A stretch of DNA of 64,000 bases from an uncultured Candidatus Cloacimonadota bacterium (GCA_964573665.1 CAZNKI010000001.1:28583-92582); one strand, 5' to 3'; counted from the stretch's first letter, positions 5,467 through 29,648 are shown. Notes: generated by a model from the sequence alone, not told the origin. Made by a program: numbers and translations.

Positions 5467-7131
5467 TTATAATGAGATTAAAATATCATTTTCAACTTTT
5501 AAAGCTAATTGGTTTATTTGATCAATTAATGATTGAGATTTAGTGATAATATCGTTTTTAAAGGCTTCATCATTAATACTTCCCATGTTGATTTTGATGT
5601 TGAGGAAAGCGGCTTTAGCTGCAGCATTTGCTGTGATTGCGGCTACACCTGCATCTGAAAGAGCGTTTTTATTGCCGATCTTTGCAATCTTTTCAGCAAG
5701 AATCACACAATCATTTGCAATTTCCAAAGTTTTGAATGGGATGAGAATAGCATTTTTTGTTGCTTCTTCCATCTTCGTGTTTCTCAATGCTTTTTCTTCA
5801 TCAGTGCTTTTTGGCAATCTCATGGCATCCATCATTTCATAGAAAGCTTGAGTATCATCATCGATTGCTCTAAGCGCTTCTGCTTTAACTTTTTGAGCAT
5901 CTTCAGCAATTGGTTTTGCCTTTTCCCAAACATTTTCATAACCTTTTTTATTGATGGTAAGGTTTGCCACCATTGCACTAAGTCCAGCTGACATTGAAGC
6001 ACATAAAGCTGCAACACTTCCGCCACCAGGAGCAGGAGAGTCTGTTGATAATTCGTCACAGAAACCTTCAAGCGTAAGATCAACCAATCTTTTTTCAGGT
6101 TGAATTGCATATTCAATAACTTTTTTATCAATATCAAAAGGTGCAAGTTCTGCTAGCCCCATTGACTGGATCGCTGTTTCAATGATCATACGATCAGGTA
6201 AACCTGCACTTTCGCCTAAGCGATTGAGGTAATATTTTCCTGCCATGATGATCGCATCTCTCGGGATCAGTCCAACAAGTTCGCTACCTGTTACCACTAA
6301 TCCTTTTTCTATTGCAAGTTCTCTAACTTTTTCGAGAACAAGGTGAGCAGGAGTGATATTATAATTGGTCAGATTCATACTGATCTGAGCACGATTGTAT
6401 TCATCAATATACCAGCCTACAGCTTTACAATGTTTGAATAAACCATCTTCAAACAGCTTTTCGCCATTTGCATCTTTCATGATTTTTCCATCAGCATCGC
6501 GTTTGAGTTTTCCTTTTTCACGAATCAGTTCAGCGATATCTTGAGCTTTCTTTTTATCTCTTGTATTCAGATTGATATTGTAAGCAATTAAGAATTCTCT
6601 AGCGCCAATTACAGTTGCGCCTGATTTTTCATTAAATGCGAAGGGACCAAAGTCAGGTCTCCAGTATTCATCTTTCATTTTGTCTGGTAAAGCTTCATAT
6701 TCGCCTTTTCTGATTTCAGCTAAATTGACTCTTTCAGGTTTTGAAGCAGAATATTCATAAAGATAAACAGGTATATTTAATTCTTCACCTACACGTTTTG
6801 CGAGCGTTTTTGATAGTTCGATACATTCTTCCATACTAACGCCAGTCACAGGAATGAAAGGGCAAACGTCTGTAGCACCCATTCTTGCGTGAGCACCGTG
6901 ATGTTTTGACATATCGATCAGTTCAGCTGCCTTTTTGATTGCCAGAAATGCTGCATCAACAACAGCTAAAGGTTCTCCAACAAATGTGAATACTGTTCGA
7001 TTGGTATCAGCACCTGGATCGACATCAAGTAAGGTGACATTTTTTACAGATTTAACCTGAGCTGCTATTGCATCTAAAATTGAACGGTCACGTCCTTCGC
7101 TGAAATTCGGAACACATTCGATGAGTTTCAT
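5467..7131 (-). CDS. ftcD: Glutamate formimidoyltransferase / formimidoyltetrahydrofolate cyclodeaminase (bifunctional FTCD)
   Basis: The N-terminus MKLIECVPNFSEGRD is the formiminotransferase signature. The C-terminal ~200 aa is an Ala-rich helical cyclodeaminase domain (DSPAPGGGSVAAL). SD GGAGGA lies upstream of ATG 7131. Confidence 0.9.
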   Translation of the reverse strand: MKLIECVPNFSEGRDRSILDAIAAQVKSVKNVTLLDVDPGADTNRTVFTFVGEPLAVVDAAFLAIKKAAELIDMSKHHGAHARMGATDVCPFIPVTGVSMEECIELSKTLAKRVGEELNIPVYLYEYSASKPERVNLAEIRKGEYEALPDKMKDEYWRPDFGPFAFNEKSGATVIGAREFLIAYNINLNTRDKKKAQDIAELIREKGKLKRDADGKIMKDANGEKLFEDGLFKHCKAVGWYIDEYNRAQISMNLTNYNITPAHLVLEKVRELAIEKGLVVTGSELVGLIPRDAIIMAGKYYLNRLGESAGLPDRMIIETAIQSMGLAELAPFDIDKKVIEYAIQPEKRLVDLTLEGFCDELSTDSPAPGGGSVAALCASMSAGLSAMVANLTINKKGYENVWEKAKPIAEDAQKVKAEALRAIDDDTQAFYEMMDAMRLPKSTDEEKALRNTKMEEATKNAILIPFKTLEIANDCVILAEKIAKIGNKNALSDAGVAAITANAAAKAAFLNIKINMGSINDEAFKNDIITKSQSLIDQINQLALKVENDILISL

Positions 7132-7350
7132 TCTTCCTCCATTGATTCTATTAATGAAATCTATTTTCTACATTGAATAATTTTTGTCCATAGTTTTTTT
7201 AATAACAAGAGCTTTGAATTATCAACGACCTTTCTAAAATCCATCCAACACATTGATTTTAACGACCAGCTCCGTTTTTTCGTAACACAACCAACCTGGT
7301 TGTGAACCGTAACGCGAGCTACCAGCTAGCGAAATCTTCTTTCTTGTTCT

Positions 7351-7699
7351 GCGAACATCCTTGTTTGCAGTACATGGTCAATAAATGATTCCTTAACAAC
7401 CATGGCAATCTGTTAGCTTGCTTTACGCGATACACGACCATCTCAAATCACTCCGGCACAAATATTTATACGAGCAGCTCCATTCCCCTCTGTGGAGGGG
7501 TGGACGCGTTAGCGGACGGGGTGGTCATGGAAAAAGTGCATCTTTTTTTGATGCCAGTAGTTCATCAAGGAGACCCCACGCTTCACGATGTTCCGCTCTG
7601 GGTGACAGATGATCGTTTTTGTAGTTTTGCCGGAATATTCCATCTATCGAAATCTCATACATCCCAAGGAGTGCACAACGAGAGCAATCTGTTTGCTCG
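7351..7699 (+). repeat. GC-rich structured element, copy A1 (candidate ncRNA or MITE-like repeat)
   Basis: About 349 bp and roughly 93-95% identical by eye to 9174-9521. It contains the 26-nt head CACGACCATCTCAAATCACTCCGGCA (7433-7458), the 46-nt GC core (7481-7526) with hairpin CCCCTC-TGTG-GAGGGG (7485-7500), and hairpin GCATC-T7-GATGC (7538-7554). TCCGGCA (head) is complementary to TGCCGGA (about 7630-7636). The ORF-track entries 7418..7612, 7500..7790 and 7609..7794 only translate this repeat. Confidence 0.7.
7403..7418 (+). promoter_or_regulatory. Sigma-54-like -24/-12 element (TGGCAA-N5-TAGCT) just upstream of the A1 head
   Basis: GG at 7404-7405 and GC at 7416-7417 are separated by 10 nt, as in the TGGCAC-N5-TTGCW consensus, with two mismatches to that consensus. 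The equivalent sequence in the other copies has AG instead of GG, so only this copy looks functional. Confidence 0.25.
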
Positions 7700-7711
7700 C
7701 TTTACGGGATT

Positions 7712-7744
7712 GGGTAGGCAAAAACCTGTCCACACATTTTTTTT
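7712..7744 (+). terminator. Possible terminator after element A1
   Basis: GGGTAGG (7712-7718) pairs with CCTGTCC (7725-7731) with two G-U pairs. A 5-nt spacer and then T8 (7737-7744) follow. The geometry is non-canonical. Confidence 0.35.
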
Positions 7745-7806
7745 CACAACTATGCGTCTGTCAAAGATCATTTTCGAGCTGTTTTTTTGAATGATCAAAA
7801 TCGATC

Positions 7807-7840
7807 AAAAAAAAACATGCCCCTCTATATATATAGGGGA
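7807..7840 (-). terminator. Possible minus-strand terminator (GC-clamped AT hairpin plus T9)
   Basis: Minus strand reads CCCCTATATATATAGAGGGG-CATG-TTTTTTTTT. It lies about 118 nt downstream of the small minus-strand ORF 7958..8110. Confidence 0.35.
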
Positions 7841-7957
7841 TCCTTCAAGCTATAAAGTATTTTAAAAGTATGACTTTTATGCATTCTAACTAAATGTAAA
7901 ATAGTCTGATGCAAAAAAAGTAAAAAATGAAATAATGATTTTTTTTTGAATGCATAT

Positions 7958-8110
7958 TTAGGCGTTATTGTTTATGTTAAAGAAATAAAAAATGACAGTA
8001 TCGTTTATTCTGCTTATACAGCTCAAGCTTATTAATCTCTCCGTCTCTTTCTTCTTGCGGATCTGATCCTCCTCGTAGGAAGTCAGTTCAGAAGTTTCAT
8101 TGCGAAACAT
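7958..8110 (-). CDS. Unannotated 50-aa ORF between the 22-bp array and the putative terminator (hypothetical; possibly a gene remnant)
   Basis: Hand translation gives MFRNETSELTSYEEDQIRKKKETERLISLSCISRINDTVIFYFFNINNNA. The first ~30 codons have coding-like composition and the rest is AT-rich. There is no clear SD, and the ORF is below the 60-aa track cutoff. Confidence 0.2.
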   Translation of the reverse strand: MFRNETSELTSYEEDQIRKKKETERLISLSCISRINDTVIFYFFNINNNA

Positions 8111-8327
8111 GCTAATCTTGTAATTTCTCAGAGATTAAATTACACATTTATCAAAAAAACATTTTACTAAACAAACATCTTCTGAATAAAAATCAAAAAA
8201 ATCTTCTTTTAAATCATCTCTCCATCATTTCCAAAATATTGGCACTCTTTTATACGTTCATCTTCTTAATCTTATCTTCTGATCGAGAGAAGAGATCTTA
8301 TTGGTGATTGATTGATAATAAGGATTT

Positions 8328-8635
8328 GACATTTTGTCACATATGAAGTGACATTTTGTCACCTATGATTTAACATTTTGTTCAGTATGATGCGACATTT
8401 TGTCACTTATGATTTAACATTTTGTTCAGTATGATGTGACATTTTGTTCAGTATGAAGTGACATTTTGTAACCTATGATTTAACATTTTGTTCAGTATTA
8501 TGCGACATTTTGTCACCTATGATTTAACATTTTGTTCAGTATGATGCGACATTTTGTTCAGTATGATTCGACATTTTGTTCAGTATGATGCGACATTTTG
8601 TCAACTATGATTTAACATTTTGTTCAGTATGTTCA
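8328..8635. repeat. Tandem array of 14 x 22 bp (iteron- or operator-like)
   Basis: Unit starts at 8328, 8350, 8372, ... 8614 have exact 22-bp phasing. Consensus is RACATTTTGTYMASTATGATKY. Two unit types occur, GACATTTTGTCACCTATGATTT and AACATTTTGTTCAGTATGATGC, often alternating as a 44-bp super-repeat. The invariant core ACA-TTT-TGT is a dyad, extended to GTGACA-TTT-TGTCAC in type 1. Confidence 0.95.
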
Positions 8636-9105
8636 TGAAATTTATTATGATTTTTAATAAAAAAATGGGATATTCAAAGAATAAAAAATATAAAATTATT
8701 TAGTTTTACTAGAAAACTGCGTTCAATCTGATCCTGATTTTCATTTCTATCACCCCTAAAAAGGTTATGATTTCTACGTTTTAATAGAGCTTTTTATCTA
8801 TGAGTTTCATAGGAACGGTAGATGATTAACACAGGCTGTGAGGACTGTGAACATGATCTCAGAAAAAGAGCGCCATCAGTACAACACCGAAATTCAGTCA
8901 TATTTTTCGTAAATATTTTATATTTTCTGCATCAAAGAATTTATAAGATATATAAAATAAATAGCTGAACCGAGAGCAAGACGGCAGTACTAAGAGCGTA
9001 TGCCTGAGCTGAATTAGCAAAATTGGTTATTTTTTATCTCAAAATGGGTGTCTGGAGATATTTGATATCAAGTATTTTTTCTGTTTCCTGTATCTAAGAA
9101 TTTAA

Positions 9106-9179
9106 ATGTAGGGGCAGGTTTTACGCCTGCCCAATCATAAGTAGGGGCGAACCTGTGTGTTCGCCATCGTTCAGCGAAC
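9106..9179. repeat. Two GTAGGGGC-initiated GC hairpins (REP-like)
   Basis: GGGCAGG-TTTTACG-CCTGCCC spans 9112-9132 and GGCGAAC-CTGTGT-GTTCGCC spans 9146-9165. An alternative pairing is GTTCGC (9159-9164) with GCGAAC (9174-9179). Confidence 0.8.
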
Positions 9180-9521
9180 ATCTCTGTTTGCAGTACATGC
9201 CCAAGCAATGATTCATTAACAACCATAGCAATCTGCTCCCTTGCTTTACGCGATACACGACCATCTCAAATCCCTCCGGCACAAAGATTTATACGAGCAG
9301 CTCCATTCCCCTCTGTGGAGGGGTGGACGCGTCAGCGGACGGGGTGGTCATGAAAAAATTGCATTTTTTTTGATGCCAGTAGTTCATCAAGGAGACCCCA
9401 CGCTTCACGATGTTCCGCTCTGGGTGACAGATGATCGTTTTTGTAGTTTTGCCGGAATATTACATCTATCGAAATCTCATACATCCCAAGGAGTGCACAA
9501 CGAGAGCAATCTGCTTGCTCG
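9174..9521 (+). repeat. GC-rich structured element, copy A2
   Basis: Collinear with A1: head at 9256-9281 and GC core at 9304-9349. ORF 9241..9576 is a translation of the repeat (PLWRGGRVSGRGGH comes from the GC core). Confidence 0.7.
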
Positions 9522-9533
9522 TGTTAAACGATA

Positions 9534-10048
9534 CACGACCATCTCATATCACTCCGGCAAATATATTATTAACTGAATCAGTCATTCAGAGCGGAACGTA
9601 GTGTAGCGTGGAATCTCCCATAGAACATCATGCATCATGTTTTTTATTGTAATCGCAAGTTTGTGAATTTTATTATTCGTGTAAGAAAGCATCCATGAAC
9701 TGAACTTAATCGATAAATAATAGATCATCAACGAGATAACAATGACCACCCCGTCCGCAGAAGGGATTTGAGATGCTCGTAATAATTTGCTTTGTTGGAG
9801 TGATTTGAGATTGATGTATTTTATGTTTTCAGATGTACGGCACTTCGTTTCGCACATCCTTACAAGTGTTAAAAGATTGTATTGTAAGATGTTAGATTAT
9901 TGTACAAGCAGACCACCCCGTCCGCTAACGCGTCCACCCCTCCACAGAGGGGAATGAAGATTTACGGCAAATTACCAAACTGTTAATGCAATATATATGC
10001 TATGTAGCAACACAACAAACAAAAAAGTACATTCCAAAAAGTTCAGTT
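9534..10048 (-). repeat. 515-bp repeat unit B1 (holds a diverged, inverted copy of the A element plus an extra GC core)
   Basis: Head at 9534-9559, truncated core at 9744-9766, inverted head-like GGAGTGATTTGAGAT at 9797-9811, and full core (reverse orientation) at 9911-9956. The reverse complement aligns block by block with A (details in findings). Confidence 0.75.
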
Positions 10049-10525
10049 CACGACCATCTCAAATCACTCCGGCATATCTATTATTAACTGAATCAGTCAT
10101 TCAGAGCGGAACGTAGTGTAGCGTGGAATCTCCCATAGAACATCATGCATCATGTTTTTTATTGTAATCGCAAGTTTGTGAATTTTATTATTCGTGTAAG
10201 AAAGCATCCATGAACTGAACTTAATCGATAAATAATAGATCATCAACGAGATAACAATGACCACCCCGTCCGCAGAAGGGATTTGAGATGCTCGTAATAA
10301 TTTGCTTTGTTGGAGTGATTTGAGATTGATGTATTTTATGTTTTCAGATGTACGGCACTTCGTTTCGCACATCCTTACAAGTGTTAAAAGATTGTATTGT
10401 AAGATGTTAGATTATTGTACAAGCAGACCACCCCGTCCGCTAACGCGTCCACCCCTCCACAGAAGGGAATGGAGATTTACGGCAAATTACCATGCTGAAA
10501 TGCAATTTATATTGTATGTAAAGCC
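10049..10525 (-). repeat. Repeat unit B2 (tandem duplicate of B1, period 515 bp)
   Basis: Head at 10049-10074, truncated core at 10259-10281, full core at 10426-10471. ORFs 9582..9857 and 10097..10372 are 100% identical at the protein level, so the duplication is recent. Similarity fades after about 10525. Confidence 0.75.
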
Positions 10526-10578
10526 AACTGGTGGACATGCAAAACTGTTTTTATTGACACATATATTCAAACAAAGGA

Positions 10579-10608
10579 TAAAAAAAGAGACGCCGTTTAA
10601 GCGTCTCT
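10579..10608 (-). terminator. Rho-independent terminator of htpG
   Basis: Minus strand reads AGAGACGC-TTAAACG-GCGTCTCT followed by T7, immediately after the htpG stop at 10625. Confidence 0.8.
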
Positions 10609-10624
10609 TCATAATATATAATGA

Positions 10625-12436
10625 TTAAATCATTTGAAGTATTTTGTTGGCTTTTTGGATAAATGCCTGTAATTCATCGCCAGTAAATCTTTTTTGTTCC
10701 AACATAGCCAAGTCATGAATATAATTAGCAATCAGAGAAGCATCTTCAGTTTTACCTTCGGCTTGAAGTGCAGAAACTTTTTTCACAGTAGGATTTTCTA
10801 CATTGATGACCAGAGTATGGTTTTTTAGCATATCCTGACCACCGAGTCCCTGATTCATAGCATGCATTTCCTGGAAGCGTCTCATAAATTCATCATAGAT
10901 GATCATACCAGGTATATTCTCGGTTTTTAAATGTTTCGCTTCAATGGTTACAGCTTCATTATTCAGTGCCTGTACGAAGGTTTCTTTGATTTTATCAGCT
11001 TCGTTTTTAGCATTTTCATCTATGTTTTCAGATTTATCTTTATCAACGAGTGTTTCGTTAATTTCTGAGTCAATTCGAACAAATCTAACGTTTGTTTTTT
11101 TGCTTTCAAGGTGTGAAAGTAAATGAGTATCTAAGATTGAATCACAGAAGATGACTTCCATTCCTTGATCTTTGATGAGGTTGAGCAATGATACCTGAGT
11201 ATTTTCGCTGATTCCATAGTAAATCTTTTTATGTTCATCTTCCTGAGGATTTCTTTCAAGATATTGATCAACCGTGATATAGTCGCCTTTTGAAGATTTA
11301 AAGATTAAGACATCTCTGATGGCTTCTGAAAAATCATCTTCAGTTAAAACGCCATATTTCACAAACTGGTTGATATCTTCCCAGTAAGATTCGTATTTTG
11401 AGCGATCTTCAGCAAAGGTGTTTTTGAAGTGATCAGCCACTTTTCTGATAATGTATTTTTTGATTTTCTGAACTTCTTTATCATTTTGAAGGAAGCTTCT
11501 CGAGACATTTAAAGGAATATCTGGTACGTCAATACCTCCTCGGAGCATCATGAGAAATTCTGGGATGAATTCTTTTAAATTGTCAGCGACAAAGACATTG
11601 TTGCAATAGAGTTTTACAGTTCCGCGAGTGAGTTCAGCATCATTTTTAATTTTTGGGAAATAGAGAATCCCTTTTAAGTTAAAAGGATAATCCAGATTTA
11701 AATGAATTTGGAATAGAGGATCTTGCCATTCGTGGAAGATCTTTTTATAGAACTCTTTGTATTCTTCGTCAGTGACATCATTTGGTTTTCTGTTCCAAAG
11801 CGCTTCTTTCTGATTGACGATGTCTTTGCCCAACATAATCGTAAATGGCATGAAATTACAATACTTTTCGAGCAATTCTTTCATCTTGAATTCTTCTAAG
11901 TATTCATCAGCCTCTGCATTAAGATGTAAGGTAATCGTGGTACCGACTTTTTTCCTTTTGCCTTTGGAAAGCGTGTATTCAGTAGAGCCATCACATTCCC
12001 AGAATGCCGGCTCAGCGCCTTCATTCATCGATAAAGAGTCGATGGTGACTTTTTCTGAAACCATAAAGGAAGAGTAAAATCCTAAACCAAAATGACCGAT
12101 GATGTTTGATTGCTGATCTTTGAATTTTTCAACAAAGTCTTCAGCACCAGAAAAGGCGATTTGGTTGATATACTTTTCGATTTCTTCTGCAGTCATACCG
12201 ATACCATAATCGATAATTTTGATGCAACGTTTCTTTTTATCTATTTCGATCTCAATTCTCAGTTCTTCAGGTTGAACATTGGTATCGAGAATTTTTCTTT
12301 TGTTCATTGCATCAATTGCATTGGAAACTAATTCACGAATAAAGATATCATGTTCAGAATACAACCATTTTTTGATAATAGGAAAGATATTCTCAGTGTG
12401 GATACTTAAAGATCCGTTTTTCTTTTCATTCGCCAT
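10625..12436 (-). CDS. htpG: Molecular chaperone HtpG (Hsp90)
   Basis: TENIFPIIKKWLYSEHDIFIRELVSNAIDA and GHFGLGFYSSFMV are Hsp90 N-domain signatures. The start is moved to ATG 12436 (MANEKK...), 6 nt after GGAGGT; the track start 12466 is an upstream extension. Confidence 0.9.
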   Translation of the reverse strand: MANEKKNGSLSIHTENIFPIIKKWLYSEHDIFIRELVSNAIDAMNKRKILDTNVQPEELRIEIEIDKKKRCIKIIDYGIGMTAEEIEKYINQIAFSGAEDFVEKFKDQQSNIIGHFGLGFYSSFMVSEKVTIDSLSMNEGAEPAFWECDGSTEYTLSKGKRKKVGTTITLHLNAEADEYLEEFKMKELLEKYCNFMPFTIMLGKDIVNQKEALWNRKPNDVTDEEYKEFYKKIFHEWQDPLFQIHLNLDYPFNLKGILYFPKIKNDAELTRGTVKLYCNNVFVADNLKEFIPEFLMMLRGGIDVPDIPLNVSRSFLQNDKEVQKIKKYIIRKVADHFKNTFAEDRSKYESYWEDINQFVKYGVLTEDDFSEAIRDVLIFKSSKGDYITVDQYLERNPQEDEHKKIYYGISENTQVSLLNLIKDQGMEVIFCDSILDTHLLSHLESKKTNVRFVRIDSEINETLVDKDKSENIDENAKNEADKIKETFVQALNNEAVTIEAKHLKTENIPGMIIYDEFMRRFQEMHAMNQGLGGQDMLKNHTLVINVENPTVKKVSALQAEGKTEDASLIANYIHDLAMLEQKRFTGDELQAFIQKANKILQMI

Positions 12437-13905: not shown

Positions 13906-13929
13906 TTCGGCTCGAGCCGAGCCGGCTCC
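13906..13929. repeat. 24-nt GC-rich palindromic REP-like element, copy 1
   Basis: Sequence TTCGGCTCGAGCCGAGCCGGCTCC, with overlapping palindromes CGGCTCGAGCCG and GAGCCGGCTC. Confidence 0.85.
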
Positions 13930-13931
13930 AT

Positions 13932-13961
13932 AAAAAAAAGCGGAGTTTTTCAACTCCGCTT
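13932..13961 (-). terminator. Rho-independent terminator of the 13982..15310 gene
   Basis: Minus strand reads AAGCGGAGTT-GAAA-AACTCCGCTT followed by T8. Confidence 0.8.
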
Positions 13962-15310: not shown

Positions 15311-15669
15311 ATATCCTCCATAATCATAATTATACTATTATATTCTTAAGACTACATTACTTGAGGGATAAAATTTTGGCAAGCTTTTTTTAATTAATTT
15401 TTGATAAAGGTTAAAAAGCAGAAATTCAGCAGACTTTTTGTCATTTCAGAAATTACACAAAAAACCAATGAAAAGATATACAGACAAAGACTTAGCGGTT
15501 TTTTACCTTTGCGGATGGGACTATAAAGCAATTTTTGCCACTATATATAAACTGCTGAAAAGAAAAGAGATAGAGATAATAAACAAAGAAAATTAAAATA
15601 AAATAAAATTTTTATTGACAAGATAATTAAAATTTAGTCAAATTGCCTAAATGAATATCGGAGGTAATT

Positions 15670-15942
15670 ATGACTCGTGAAGACTTGGTTGCTAAAATTG
15701 CAGAAGATGCAAAAATCACTAAGAAAGCTGCTGCTAATGCTCTTAATTCTGTTTTAGACGGAATCGTTGAAGCACTTCAAGCTGGAGAAAAAATCACATT
15801 TGTTGGTTTTGGAACTTTTAATGTTATCGAAAGAAAAGCAAGAAAAGGTATCAATCCAAGCACAAAACAACCTATTGACATCCCTGCTTGCAAAGCTCCT
15901 GTTTTTAAAGCTGGCAGCAAATTAAAAGAAGCAGTTAAGTAA
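15670..15942 (+). CDS. hup: DNA-binding protein HU
   Basis: 90 aa with GFGTFNVIERKARKGINPSTKQPIDIPA (the HU arm). SD GGAGGT lies upstream. Confidence 0.9.
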   Translation: MTREDLVAKIAEDAKITKKAAANALNSVLDGIVEALQAGEKITFVGFGTFNVIERKARKGINPSTKQPIDIPACKAPVFKAGSKLKEAVK

Positions 15943-15958
15943 GACATTATTATTAAAT

Positions 15959-15990
15959 AAGCGGTTGATGATCAACCGCTTATTTTTTTT
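15959..15990 (+). terminator. Rho-independent terminator of hup
   Basis: AAGCGGTTG-ATGAT-CAACCGCTT followed by a T-run (15982-15991). Confidence 0.8.
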
Positions 15991-16024
15991 TGTATAAATT
16001 TTGAGTAAGGAATTATTCAGTTAA

Positions 16025-16048
16025 TTCGGCTCGATCCGAGCCGGCTCC
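16025..16048. repeat. 24-nt REP-like element, copy 2 (variant TTCGGCTCGATCCGAGCCGGCTCC)
   Basis: Same orientation as copy 1, with one substitution. Confidence 0.85.
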
Positions 16049-16099
16049 AAGACTTGTTTAAAGCATTTGGATTGGATAATTGATCTTCAGAATAATAAT

Positions 16100-16123
16100 T
16101 TCGGCTCGAGCCGAGCCGGCTCC
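16100..16123. repeat. 24-nt REP-like element, copy 3
   Basis: Exact TTCGGCTCGAGCCGAGCCGGCTCC, 8 nt from the stop of the 16131..16790 gene. The spurious ORF 16058..16261 translates it (GAGSARAE). Confidence 0.85.
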
Positions 16124-16130
16124 AGAGATA

Positions 16131-27047: not shown

Positions 27048-27564
27048 TTTTCAAGTATTATGTTTAATATAGTACTTTTCGAATCAAATGATTTTTATGA
27101 ATTAGATTCAAAAAAATATATATTTAAAAATTATTCATGTATTTCAAAAGAGTTAAATTTAAGAATATTAGATGCTATATTTTTCGATATGTATAAATAA
27201 AGAAAATTTTGACAAAACAAAAAAAGTGCTTTACAAAAAAATGCAAATAATGAAAAAAAGTGTTATCTCTGAAGTTTATAAAGTCTAAGGTGATAAACTA
27301 TGACTCATAAACCAATGGGCTAAATCCGAAAAGATTTAACCTCCCGTCGATGGAAAGGAGTAAACATGAATGCAGTAAACTCGGTAGATAAGCCGATTAG
27401 TGATTCAATAGTAAAGCACATCAAAGGCTATCAAAAAAACAGTATTTGTAAATTATGCTATTTATTCAATGATCAACGATAATGAATTTTGTCAAAATAA
27501 AGCAAAAATTTATGTTATCAGCCATCATCAATCATTTTTATGTATATTCAATTGAAGAAAAAAA

Positions 27565-27866: not shown

Positions 27867-29648
27867 ATGAGTGACATGATTACAATTACAATTGATGGGA
27901 AAGTTATTGAGACTAAGTCAAGTAACACAATATTGCAAGCGGCAAAAGAGCATGGGATTTATATTCCTACGCTATGTTGGCATGAAGATTTAGCGCCAAC
28001 GTCAAACTGTGGGATTTGTGTAGTGTATGTGGACAAAAACACACAACCGAAGAGAGCATGCAGTACCCCAGTTTATCCAGGAATGAGTATTGTAAGCAAT
28101 AGCAAGGAATTACGATTATTCAGAAAAACATTACTTCAATTGTTTTTAGCGAATCATGACATTGATTGTCCTTCATGTAATGCAAATAATAAATGTGAAC
28201 TTCAAGAGTTATGCAACAATATGGGTGTAAAAATATTAGATGCGCCTGCCATTTATAAGAAAAAAGATTTAGATGAGAGTAGTATCGCTATAACAAGAGA
28301 TCCAAATAAATGTATCTCATGTGGACGCTGTGTAACCGTATGTAATGATGTGCAGGGAGTATCTGCTTTAACATTTGTTAATAGAGGTTTTGACGGTCAA
28401 GTGGATGTTGCTTTTTTAAATGGGTTAGGAAACAGTGCATGTATCAATTGTGGTCAATGTATCGTCTATTGCCCAACAGGTGCATTAAGTGAGCGTTCAC
28501 ATATTGATGAAGTATGGGAAGCCATTTATAATAATGACAAATATGTCATTGTTCAGGAAGCTCCAGCAATTCGTGCATCATTAGCCGATGAATTTGGCAT
28601 GAATATGGAAGACGTGACACCTGGAAAAATGTATGCAGCATTGAGAACCATAGGATTTGACGCTGTAATGGATACCAATTTTACAGCCGATTTAACGATT
28701 ATGGAAGAAGGAACTGAGCTTGTTGACCGAGTAAAGAAAAATCTGCCATTACCATTAATCACATCATGTTCACCAGGCTGGATCAAATATATGGAAACAT
28801 TCTATCCAGATTTAGCTCCTTACGTATCAACTGCAAAATCACCCATGTCCATGTTTGGCGTATTAAGTAAAACATATTATGCTCAGAAGAATAATATTGA
28901 TCCCGCAAAAATCGTATCTGTAGCGATCATGCCATGTACAGCGAAAAAATTTGAAGCGAATCGACCAGAATTAAGAGATTCTGGTTTTCAAGATACAGAC
29001 TATGTATTAACGACACGTGAGTTTATCAAATTAATCAAAGAAGCTGGTATTGATTTCAAGAATATTCAAGAGGAGCAAGCAGATCAAGGTATGAGTTTTT
29101 ATACTGGAGCTGGAACAATTTTTGGAGCTACAGGCGGGGTAATGGAAGCTGCAATTCGTTCAGCATTTACACTAATCACTGGAGATGAATTACAAGAAGT
29201 TGACATTAAAGTTGTCAGAGGGTTGGAAGGCATCAAAGAAGGAACTGTTGATATCCCAGGATTTGGATTGTTAAAAGTTGCTGTTGCGCACGGAACAAGT
29301 AATGCTCAGAAATTGATGGATAAAGTCAGAGCACAAATCAGTGAAACAGGTAAGTCAGAATATCATTTTATTGAGGTCATGGCATGTCCTGGCGGATGTG
29401 TGGGCGGAGGTGGCCAACCTTATGGTAACAGCTTAAGTAAGAGAGTAAAACGTGCTAATGCATTATATAAAGAAGATCAAAATATGAAGATCAGAAAATC
29501 ACATCACAATCCAGAAGTAGTAAAGATATATGAAGAATTTTTAGGTTCACCGAATTCACCATTAGCTCAGAAATTGTTACATACACATTATTTTGAGCGA
29601 TCACAGATTAATGGTCAAGTGGTGAAGGAAGTGACCCATAAGCATTAA
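27867..29648 (+). CDS. hydA: Monomeric [FeFe]-hydrogenase (clostridial-type, with N-terminal 2Fe-2S and accessory 4Fe-4S domains)
   Basis: H-cluster motifs TSCSPGW, MPCTAKKFE and EVMACPGGCVGGGGQP. The N-terminal region has CGICVV, HDIDCPSCNANNKC, CISCGRCVTVC and CINCGQCIVYCP. SD GGAGAG lies upstream. Confidence 0.9.
   Translation: MSDMITITIDGKVIETKSSNTILQAAKEHGIYIPTLCWHEDLAPTSNCGICVVYVDKNTQPKRACSTPVYPGMSIVSNSKELRLFRKTLLQLFLANHDIDCPSCNANNKCELQELCNNMGVKILDAPAIYKKKDLDESSIAITRDPNKCISCGRCVTVCNDVQGVSALTFVNRGFDGQVDVAFLNGLGNSACINCGQCIVYCPTGALSERSHIDEVWEAIYNNDKYVIVQEAPAIRASLADEFGMNMEDVTPGKMYAALRTIGFDAVMDTNFTADLTIMEEGTELVDRVKKNLPLPLITSCSPGWIKYMETFYPDLAPYVSTAKSPMSMFGVLSKTYYAQKNNIDPAKIVSVAIMPCTAKKFEANRPELRDSGFQDTDYVLTTREFIKLIKEAGIDFKNIQEEQADQGMSFYTGAGTIFGATGGVMEAAIRSAFTLITGDELQEVDIKVVRGLEGIKEGTVDIPGFGLLKVAVAHGTSNAQKLMDKVRAQISETGKSEYHFIEVMACPGGCVGGGGQPYGNSLSKRVKRANALYKEDQNMKIRKSHHNPEVVKIYEEFLGSPNSPLAQKLLHTHYFERSQINGQVVKEVTHKH

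Follow-up and report, generated by a model that had tools for sequence, protein, structure and literature searches.

Repetitive extragenic palindromes (REPs) are 20-40 bp in size, and those of the CGTC type have a stem-loop between a CGTC head and a short CCA tail (Di Nocera et al. 2013, PMC3733652). The stems of CGTC REPs are 8-9 bp long and start with A/T pairs, the loops have 4-5 nt, and the family 'apparently lacks a dedicated transposase'; the Rickettsia palindromic elements (RPEs) RPE-4 and RPE-6 are classed with it. The same study reports that large REP clusters reiterate units along with flanking DNA, and that REPs occur inside genes. Here we describe a 3.5-kb island at positions 7132-10624, between the start of ftcD (7131) and the stop of htpG (10625), in a 64,000-nt stretch of DNA from an uncultured Candidatus Cloacimonadota bacterium (GCA_964573665.1 CAZNKI010000001.1:28583-92582; this whole stretch is called the window). 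The island is not a gene, nor a demonstrated structured RNA. It is best read as a new REP-type repeat cluster, lineage-specific and grown by local duplication, and the family of its 49-nt GC-rich core is the most interesting by-product of the analysis.

Other systems also invite comparison. Hairpins made of REP doublets (REPINs) and their REP-associated tyrosine transposases (RAYTs) were reportedly described by Nunvar in 2010, by Bertels and Rainey in 2011 and by Ton-Hoang in 2012. RPEs, in the work of Ogata from 2000, are said to be 100-150 nt long, to be confined to Rickettsia and to insert in frame into protein genes.

The island resembles clusters of REPs and bacterial interspersed mosaic elements (BIMEs) in several ways. 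The hairpins are short and GC-rich with compensatory stem variants, inverted dimers predominate, and the copies are mostly intergenic with some in genes. As in those clusters, units are reiterated together with flanking DNA, there are GTAG heads (at 9108-9166), and the core hairpin is framed by CGTC and CCA. The core differs from REP/BIME units in having two hairpins with an invariant first helix and invariant flanks, in being nearly identical across several phyla and phage contigs, and in being clustered here. Inverted hairpin doublets are also a feature of REPIN/RAYT systems, and in a relative with 82% HtpG identity a RAYT-like gene lies near htpG, flanked by a REPIN pair of its own; however, no RAYT was found in the window or in the 1.4 Mb of loci that carry the core, and the REPINs of the relative, of GCTTCGCTGCGGGT type, are unrelated to the core. 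The likeness to RPEs is insertion into a gene in frame without destroying it, whereas the core is only about 45-50 nt long and taxonomically broad.

Results

Repeats make up about 2.07 of the 3.49 kb, or about 59%, of the island (Table 1). Four full and two internally deleted cores and two GTAG-headed hairpins are found, inside longer units that are specific to this window, a pair called A and a pair called B. The initial annotation had spoken of four related elements, and these correspond to A1 and A2 (91-94% identical) and B1 and B2 (99%), which share the GC core. The core lies on the + strand in A and on the - strand in B, and its arms are 96-98% complementary. A and B also have in common a 42-nt 'd' module and a 24-nt 'M' motif, which occurs several times and in either orientation. 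The order in A1 is a stem-loop, a D5/M motif, the GC core, the d module and a truncated second D5. In B1, read on the - strand, the order is a core, two M-like motifs, a deleted core, the d module and an inverted M. A 30-nt piece of the GC core has four matches in the window versus none expected, and a covariance model of the core (R1) run over the 64 kb finds the four island copies only. The first copy reads ATT-CCCCTC-TGTG-GAGGGGTG-G-ACGC-GTTA-GCGG-A-CGGGGTGG-TC. The measured GC content is 48-50% in the A blocks, 45-50% in the GC-rich blocks overall and 24-30% in the AT-rich spacers, compared with 32.6% in the whole window, which confirms the alternation of AT-rich stretches with GC-rich, hairpin-bearing blocks noted at the outset.

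Neither A nor B has the hallmarks of a miniature inverted-repeat transposable element. The ends of A1 and A2 have no common terminal inverted repeat or duplication, the core is asymmetric (ATT and KTT ends), and the inverted M motifs inside B (pair I18) do not match the unit ends. Nothing is shared between the island and the rest of the window. Relatives of the A and B flanks were found neither in the core-bearing loci, nor in viral contigs, nor, by way of their open reading frames (ORFs), in a protein collection. Two scans of the viral contigs for A, B and array motifs were empty, and the other scans gave single chance matches inside coding DNA.

The island is by far the largest ORF-poor stretch of the window in a greedy ORF map, which agrees with the outsized gap in a tightly packed genome that had been noted. 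The other gaps above 300 nt in that map measure 820 nt (with an HU gene), 887 nt (with a molybdenum cofactor riboswitch) and 507 nt. The longest ORFs left in the island have 111 and 108 aa. The island ORFs have codon log-odds between -0.16 and +0.18, against a mean of -0.03 and a 95th percentile of 0.19 for shadow ORFs and a mean of 0.27 and a 5th percentile of 0.10 for real genes. No island ORF has a Pfam match at E <= 1, and a search among 5.8 billion proteins gave no homologue of the 111-aa ORF. Ten island ORFs were looked up in a collection of 15 billion proteins and none is present, while the neighbouring FtcD and HtpG are; the 91-aa ORF is likewise not on record. A coding function for A or B was rejected on the missing homologues and Pfam matches, the absence from the protein collection and the poor codon scores, so the claim that the island holds no credible protein gene stands. 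The two identical 91-aa ORFs, spaced by 515 nt, occupy 9582-9857 and 10097-10372 of the - strand, and translation of the GC module yields the PLWRGGRVSGRGGH peptide in ORFs 7418-7612 and 9241-9576; both had been taken for translated repeats, and both sets were located as such. The island also contains no tRNA, tmRNA or member of an Rfam family.

The core is apparently the sole module of the island with relatives elsewhere. Its consensus is ATT-CCCCTCC-loop-GGAGGGGTG-[variable hairpin]-CGGGGTGG-KTT, about 45-50 nt. An exact 28-mer of the core, searched in one genome per species, gave 22 loci in three metagenome-assembled genomes (MAGs) labelled Bacillota, Oscillospiraceae and Endomicrobium. The Bacillota-labelled MAG Th196P3bin37 accounts for at least 20 copies, the Oscillospiraceae MAG for two and the Endomicrobium MAG for one, and a metagenome scan with the same 28-mer gave four further loci. 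By blastn, just 43-54 nt are shared with the 28-mer loci. With a generalised core pattern, 76 viral loci yielded 111 copies, a single contig carrying as many as five, at contig GC from 0.34 to 0.71; the covariance model has 129 matches in those sources. In one of the viral loci (L082, three core copies), positions 1-28 are the 3' terminus of a tmRNA gene, which suggests a prophage integrated at ssrA.

Conservation of the core has sharp edges, starting at -3 and ending at +2/+3. Almost no variation is seen in helix 1 and the two GGGGTG boxes. The sequence and length of helix 2 differ between copies, yet it stays paired, with 94 cells changed on both sides and 96.7% of cells paired in an alignment that was fitted to the model; the raw copy list shows the same pattern. 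None of 500 shuffles reaches the observed covariation, and slid controls are far lower. On the - strand, the window copies and most variants from Th196P3bin37 and the viral contigs read CCCCGTC-[stem-loop]-(T)CCACCCC, with the head and tail of a CGTC REP. The stems and size are not those of CGTC REPs, since the core has GC-rich stems of 3-6 bp, a length of 45-50 nt and an extra invariant helix. There was no Rfam match to the core, including five core-rich viral loci at E <= 1, and the searchable literature gave chance primer matches only. No description of the family was met in Rfam or the searchable literature, and one may exist elsewhere.

Does the core behave as an RNA element or as a DNA element? 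With respect to co-directional flanking genes, the core has the same orientation in 18 cases and the opposite one in 11 in the Bacillota MAG, and 20 and 21 in the viral contigs, for a total of 38 to 32. Inside long ORFs, 22 copies are sense and 30 antisense. The ORF maps behind these orientation counts are crude, and some cases counted as inside an ORF are read-through between genes. The fixed orientation of a strand-specific cis-regulatory RNA is thus not seen. Close pairs of cores are mostly inverted, 16 versus 2 in the Bacillota MAG and 6 versus 3 in the viral contigs. A TatD ORF of 339 aa (L027, 5308-6327, -) carries a 62-residue in-frame insertion that consists of the core and two further GC hairpins, and both halves of the ORF still align to solved TatD structures. 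In the one alignable pair of filled and empty sites, the core is present in one copy of a repeat mosaic (L108, 5550-5770) and absent from the other (L146, 2280-2450), without a clear target duplication. Other short repeats in this mosaic are TTGTAACTTGTA runs and, on the opposite strand, a GTAG-type hairpin. The behaviour of the core favours a DNA element over an RNA element. Mobile non-coding elements had been proposed for the island, and the core in other phyla and in phage contigs, the presence/absence pair, the TatD insertion and the GTAG hairpins all support that proposal.

The two GTAG-headed hairpins form a tandem pair. The hairpin at 9108 is GTAGGGGCAGG..CCTGCCC, that is GTAG-GGGCAGG-TTTTACG-CCTGCCC, and that at 9141 is GTAGGGGCGAAC..GTTCGCC, that is GTAG-GGGCGAAC-CTGTGT-GTTCGCC. 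Both have the terminal GTAG, the 6-13 bp stem and the short loop of GTAG REPs, and their fold z values substantiate the REP-like hairpins of the initial annotation. The high-copy dispersal of GTAG REPs is not seen in the 64 kb, which contain only two hairpin-forming GTAGGGG sites, adjacent to each other. A similar GTAG hairpin adjoins the core at three loci of the Oscillospiraceae MAG (L007, L018 and L028). Terminators had been suggested on both strands; the htpG terminator on the - strand is convincing, but the two internal sites fold like shuffled sequences.

The named best matches of HtpG and FtcD place the host in Cloacimonadota. The edges of the island are found in other assemblies. In Logan contigs of the same population from two runs, both junctions are present at 100% identity, and the contigs stop inside repeats, at 7446 and 10434. 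Sister populations in four other runs have ftcD contigs (95% identity) that extend through A1 to 7493, and htpG contigs (98.5% identity) that extend into the end of B2, at 10432-10487. Since both edges are reproduced in independent assemblies, they are real and conserved within the species. The region upstream of ftcD (7132-7345) is 99.5% identical to that of a sister strain (L038), whereas third codon positions of ftcD are only 87% identical. This contrast points to either a recombination boundary at the ftcD start or a leader under strong constraint.

A congener at 85-87% nucleotide identity does not have the island. In its place, a DUF1003 gene lies convergent to htpG, 26 nt past it (L031). 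Synteny with this congener contig ends at 10582, and homology upstream of ftcD with another (L040) ends at 7205. Searches with tblastn for the congener DUF1003 gene or the neighbouring ORF, hidden in the island or window, were empty. Because the island is missing from the congener and synteny ends there, the island is young and located at a synteny break, and these comparisons indicate that it is lineage-specific. Upstream of ftcD, at a contig end, the congener does have a variant core with a different, compensating hairpin, GGGGTGG-CAGC-GACA-GCTG-ACGGGGTGGTC, oriented the opposite way. We considered a composite transposon bounded by the inverted 49-nt cores and rejected it, because the congener boundaries (7205 and 10582) do not fit.

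More distant relatives have mobile genes near htpG. The relative with 82% HtpG identity has a RAYT-like ORF of 216 aa (L033, 1372-2022), 1.3 kb upstream of htpG. This ORF has a Y1_Tnp match just below the cut-off (E 2e-4) and a tblastn match to Escherichia coli RAYT (2e-9), and is flanked (960-1240 and 2080-2190) by the inverted REPIN-like repeats mentioned above. In a relative with 78% HtpG identity (L030, 1774-6943), a group II intron reverse transcriptase and IS66- and IS256-type transposases are upstream of htpG. The htpG neighbourhood thus appears, from gene content, to attract mobile DNA in this lineage.

The 22-bp array consists of two types of unit, GATGYGACATTTTGTCACYTAT and GATTTAACATTTTGTTCAGTAT, each with a short palindrome. 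The units are in exact register without insertions or deletions, with invariant ACATTTTGT and TATGA. The core motif of the array has 13 matches versus 1.3 expected, all within the array. The iterons of theta-type plasmid origins, for example the 22-bp repeats of the R6K gamma ori or of pPS10, are likewise direct 22-bp repeats in exact helical phase that adjoin AT-rich DNA, and the general pattern of phased direct repeats of about 17-22 bp beside AT-rich DNA is found here, with 14 units of 22 bp and flanks of 24-30% GC. The iteron-like form that had been proposed therefore fits, but the array differs from iterons in lacking an adjacent rep gene (there is no credible ORF), DnaA boxes and any plasmid or phage relative, and 14 units are unusually many. 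No TTATCCACA-like site with <=1 mismatch occurs in 7132-10624, and no relatives of the array were found in 72,556 plasmids, 50,697 phages or the viral contigs. A chromosomal origin was rejected, as there is no DnaA box in the island and no clear switch in GC skew, and the flanking genes are all on one strand. A Crp/Fnr-type regulator that would bind the array was also rejected as speculation only; the neighbouring cyclic nucleotide-binding protein has no detectable helix-turn-helix domain in Pfam. The array belongs to the same gene-free patch, and may be a minisatellite or a protein-binding array.

Outside the island, the gene for an HU-type DNA-binding protein of 90 aa (15670-15942, +; Bac_DNA_binding, E 3e-31) fills most of the 820-nt gap at 15311-16130. 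A molybdenum cofactor/tungsten riboswitch aptamer is located at 27255-27376 (+; 50.1 bits, E 5e-9), about 490 nt upstream of a gene (27867-29648, +) with [FeFe]-hydrogenase large- and small-subunit domains and ferredoxin domains, which is an unusual partner for this riboswitch. A 23-nt palindrome, TCGGCTCGAnCCGAGCCGGCTCC, is an unrelated repeat with three copies (13907-13929, 16026-16048 and 16101-16123) versus none expected. The copy at 13907 is inside an apparently spurious 5' extension of an arginine deiminase ORF (TTG start at 13953).

Table 1. Features of the island, in window coordinates.
Feature	Position	Strand	Remarks
ftcD upstream region (promoter and leader)	7132-7345	-	Unique; no repeat partner; outside the repeats
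Repeat A1, ~360 nt	7346-7704	+	Families D3 and D4; 91-94% identical to A2; present at the same site in sister strain L038
Core copy 1	7479-7530	+	R1 63.0 bits, E 2e-21; 49-nt arms are inverted pairs I1-I4
Weak hairpin and T-run after A1	7711-7745	+	Consensus scan; -7.9 kcal/mol, z = -0.7; not convincing
AT-rich spacer	7705-8322		
CCCCTATATATATAGAGGGG hairpin, then T9	7805-7846	-	Read from sequence; z = -0.09; not convincing
Array of 14 tandem 22-bp units	8323-8631	none	Tandem Repeats Finder period 22, 14.0 copies, score 337
AT-rich spacer	8632-9107		
Two tandem GTAG-headed REP-like hairpins	9108-9166	+	-15.8 and -11.4 kcal/mol, z = -4.2 and -2.8
Repeat A2	9169-9526	+	Runs directly into B1; 91-94% identical to A1
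Core copy 2	9302-9353	+	R1 63.5 bits, E 1e-21
Repeat B1, first unit of 515-nt tandem duplication	9534-10048	-	Family D2; 99% identical over 300 nt, spacing 515
Internally deleted core, CCCTTCTG/CGGACGGGGTGGTCAT	9742-9768	-	~20 nt lost between two GGGGTGG repeats; inverted pairs I20 and I21
Core copy 3	9907-9958	-	R1 61.6 bits
Repeat B2, second tandem unit	10049 to ~10520	-	Decays past ~10490; sister-strain contigs L042-L045 reach 10432-10487 at 98.5% identity
Second internally deleted core, B2 counterpart of 9742-9768	10257-10283	-	I21 and the 515-nt register
Core copy 4	10422-10473	-	R1 58.8 bits
htpG intrinsic terminator, right boundary	10584-10610	-	11-bp stem and T-run; -15.7 kcal/mol, z = -6.1

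Discussion

We read the island as a lineage-specific, non-coding, BIME-like cluster of REP-like DNA hairpins that expanded through local duplication, with a probability of roughly 0.65. The A unit would have multiplied by dispersed duplication, with the copies 1.8 kb apart, and the B unit by a recent 515-nt tandem duplication. The hairpins may spread as single-stranded DNA structures handled in trans, either by an HUH/Y1-type, RAYT-like enzyme or by another host or phage enzyme, and the cluster could then have grown by recombination or slippage between repeat copies. Under this proposal the island would have no dedicated cellular role beyond the ftcD promoter and the htpG terminator.

Several observations weigh against the BIME-like cluster. 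No Y1, RAYT or IS200-like ORF was found by tblastn in the window or in the 1.4 Mb of core-bearing loci (L033-L036, whose repeats differ, excepted), so that a cognate Y1 transposase flanked by the repeats, which defines a REPIN/RAYT system, was not found there; this is a soft negative, with E. coli RAYT, IS200 TnpA and the RAYT-like ORF of L033 as queries, and it agrees with the lack of an enzyme dedicated to CGTC REPs. The A and B flanks, at 45-50% GC in a window of 32.6%, fit import better than local growth, and have no relatives in the data searched. Within the 64 kb the core is clustered and not dispersed, unlike a typical REP family, and it is longer than the 20-40 bp of REPs, with stems shorter than those of the CGTC families. 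The phylum labels of the core-bearing MAGs rest on binning. Finally, the perfect phasing and palindromic cores of the 22-bp array look more like a protein-binding array than junk.

Could A and B instead encode structured non-coding RNAs some 200-500 nt long, with the GC-rich blocks as RNA domains kept GC-rich? Such a proposal would account for blocks of 45-50% GC in a 32.6% GC genome, and for the identity of about 97% between A1 and A2 at positions 82-359. A hairpin and T-run follow A1 on the + strand, and the fold of the - strand of B2 has z = -2.45. Furthermore, a 4-bp helix in the d module is kept by two double changes (CC/GG to UU/AA) when A is compared with the reverse complement of B. 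However, Rfam 15 gave no relevant match at E <= 10 in 7000-10700 or at gathering scores in the window, and the folds of A and B only marginally beat those of shuffled sequences, with both strands alike (z = -1.6 to -2.5). Among 101 predicted pairs there is no compensatory pair between A1 and A2, and shuffled sequences fold as well as the putative terminator after A1. The core, the sole module with relatives, is indifferent to orientation and occurs inside ORFs, while A and B themselves have no relatives in viral contigs or, through their ORFs, in the protein collection. The structured RNA put forward in the initial annotation was thus not borne out by the empty Rfam scan, the marginal folds, the lack of compensation and the lack of orientation preference, and we consider RNA genes unlikely. 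An assembly artefact, in the form of a collapsed or chimeric repeat, might be suspected because the island is repeat-rich and short-read contigs break there. The breaks are inside repeats, as true repeats predict, and the repeat copies differ by 1-9%, unlike a collapse. With the junctions at 100% identity in two runs and at 95-98.5% in four more, an artefact is effectively excluded for the edges and is extremely improbable overall.

The array suggests another origin for the island, in a replicon or partition site of plasmid or phage type that had integrated and is now a remnant, or that lacks genes and depends on a helper. The 22-bp units, flanked by AT-rich DNA of 24-30% GC, would then serve as iterons or centromere repeats for a binding protein provided in trans. 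The exact phasing of the units, with invariant cores and internal dyad symmetry, is consistent with this, as are the frequency of the core family in phage contigs, the lack of the island in the congener and the 49-nt inverted cores near both island ends (98% complementary, 2899 nt apart). Against it, there is no rep, par, integrase or other mobile gene, or recognisable pseudogene, in or beside the island, and no DnaA box in 7132-10624. The plasmids and phages, searched with blastn in distant mode, and the viral contigs gave no similarity, and the congener boundaries do not coincide with the inverted cores. A replicon remnant is, in our view, quite unlikely. A bolder proposal, which we regard as rather doubtful, is that the core represents an undescribed class of tiny selfish DNA elements of about 45 nt (an invariant CCCCTCC/GGAGGGG helix, GGGGTG boxes and a covarying hairpin), which would move across phyla and phages without a cognate transposase, tolerate in-frame insertion into genes and seed islands such as this one. 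In the same proposal the orphan array would have a function in binding a protein, for instance as a decoy, as a site akin to a centromere or as a helper-dependent origin, and would not be a minisatellite.

Annotators should mark the region as a repeat cluster and should not enter the 91-, 108- and 111-aa ORFs as hypothetical genes. The repeat cluster also accounts for the breaks that short-read assemblies of this Cloacimonadota lineage show between ftcD and htpG. The core is compact and easily searched for, as a single pattern scan gave viral copies as well as MAGs of three or four phyla. If the absence of a transposase holds, the family would be a tractable case for studying how REP-like hairpins without an enzyme of their own spread, also through phages and into coding sequence, and how such hairpins nucleate large non-coding islands in compact genomes.

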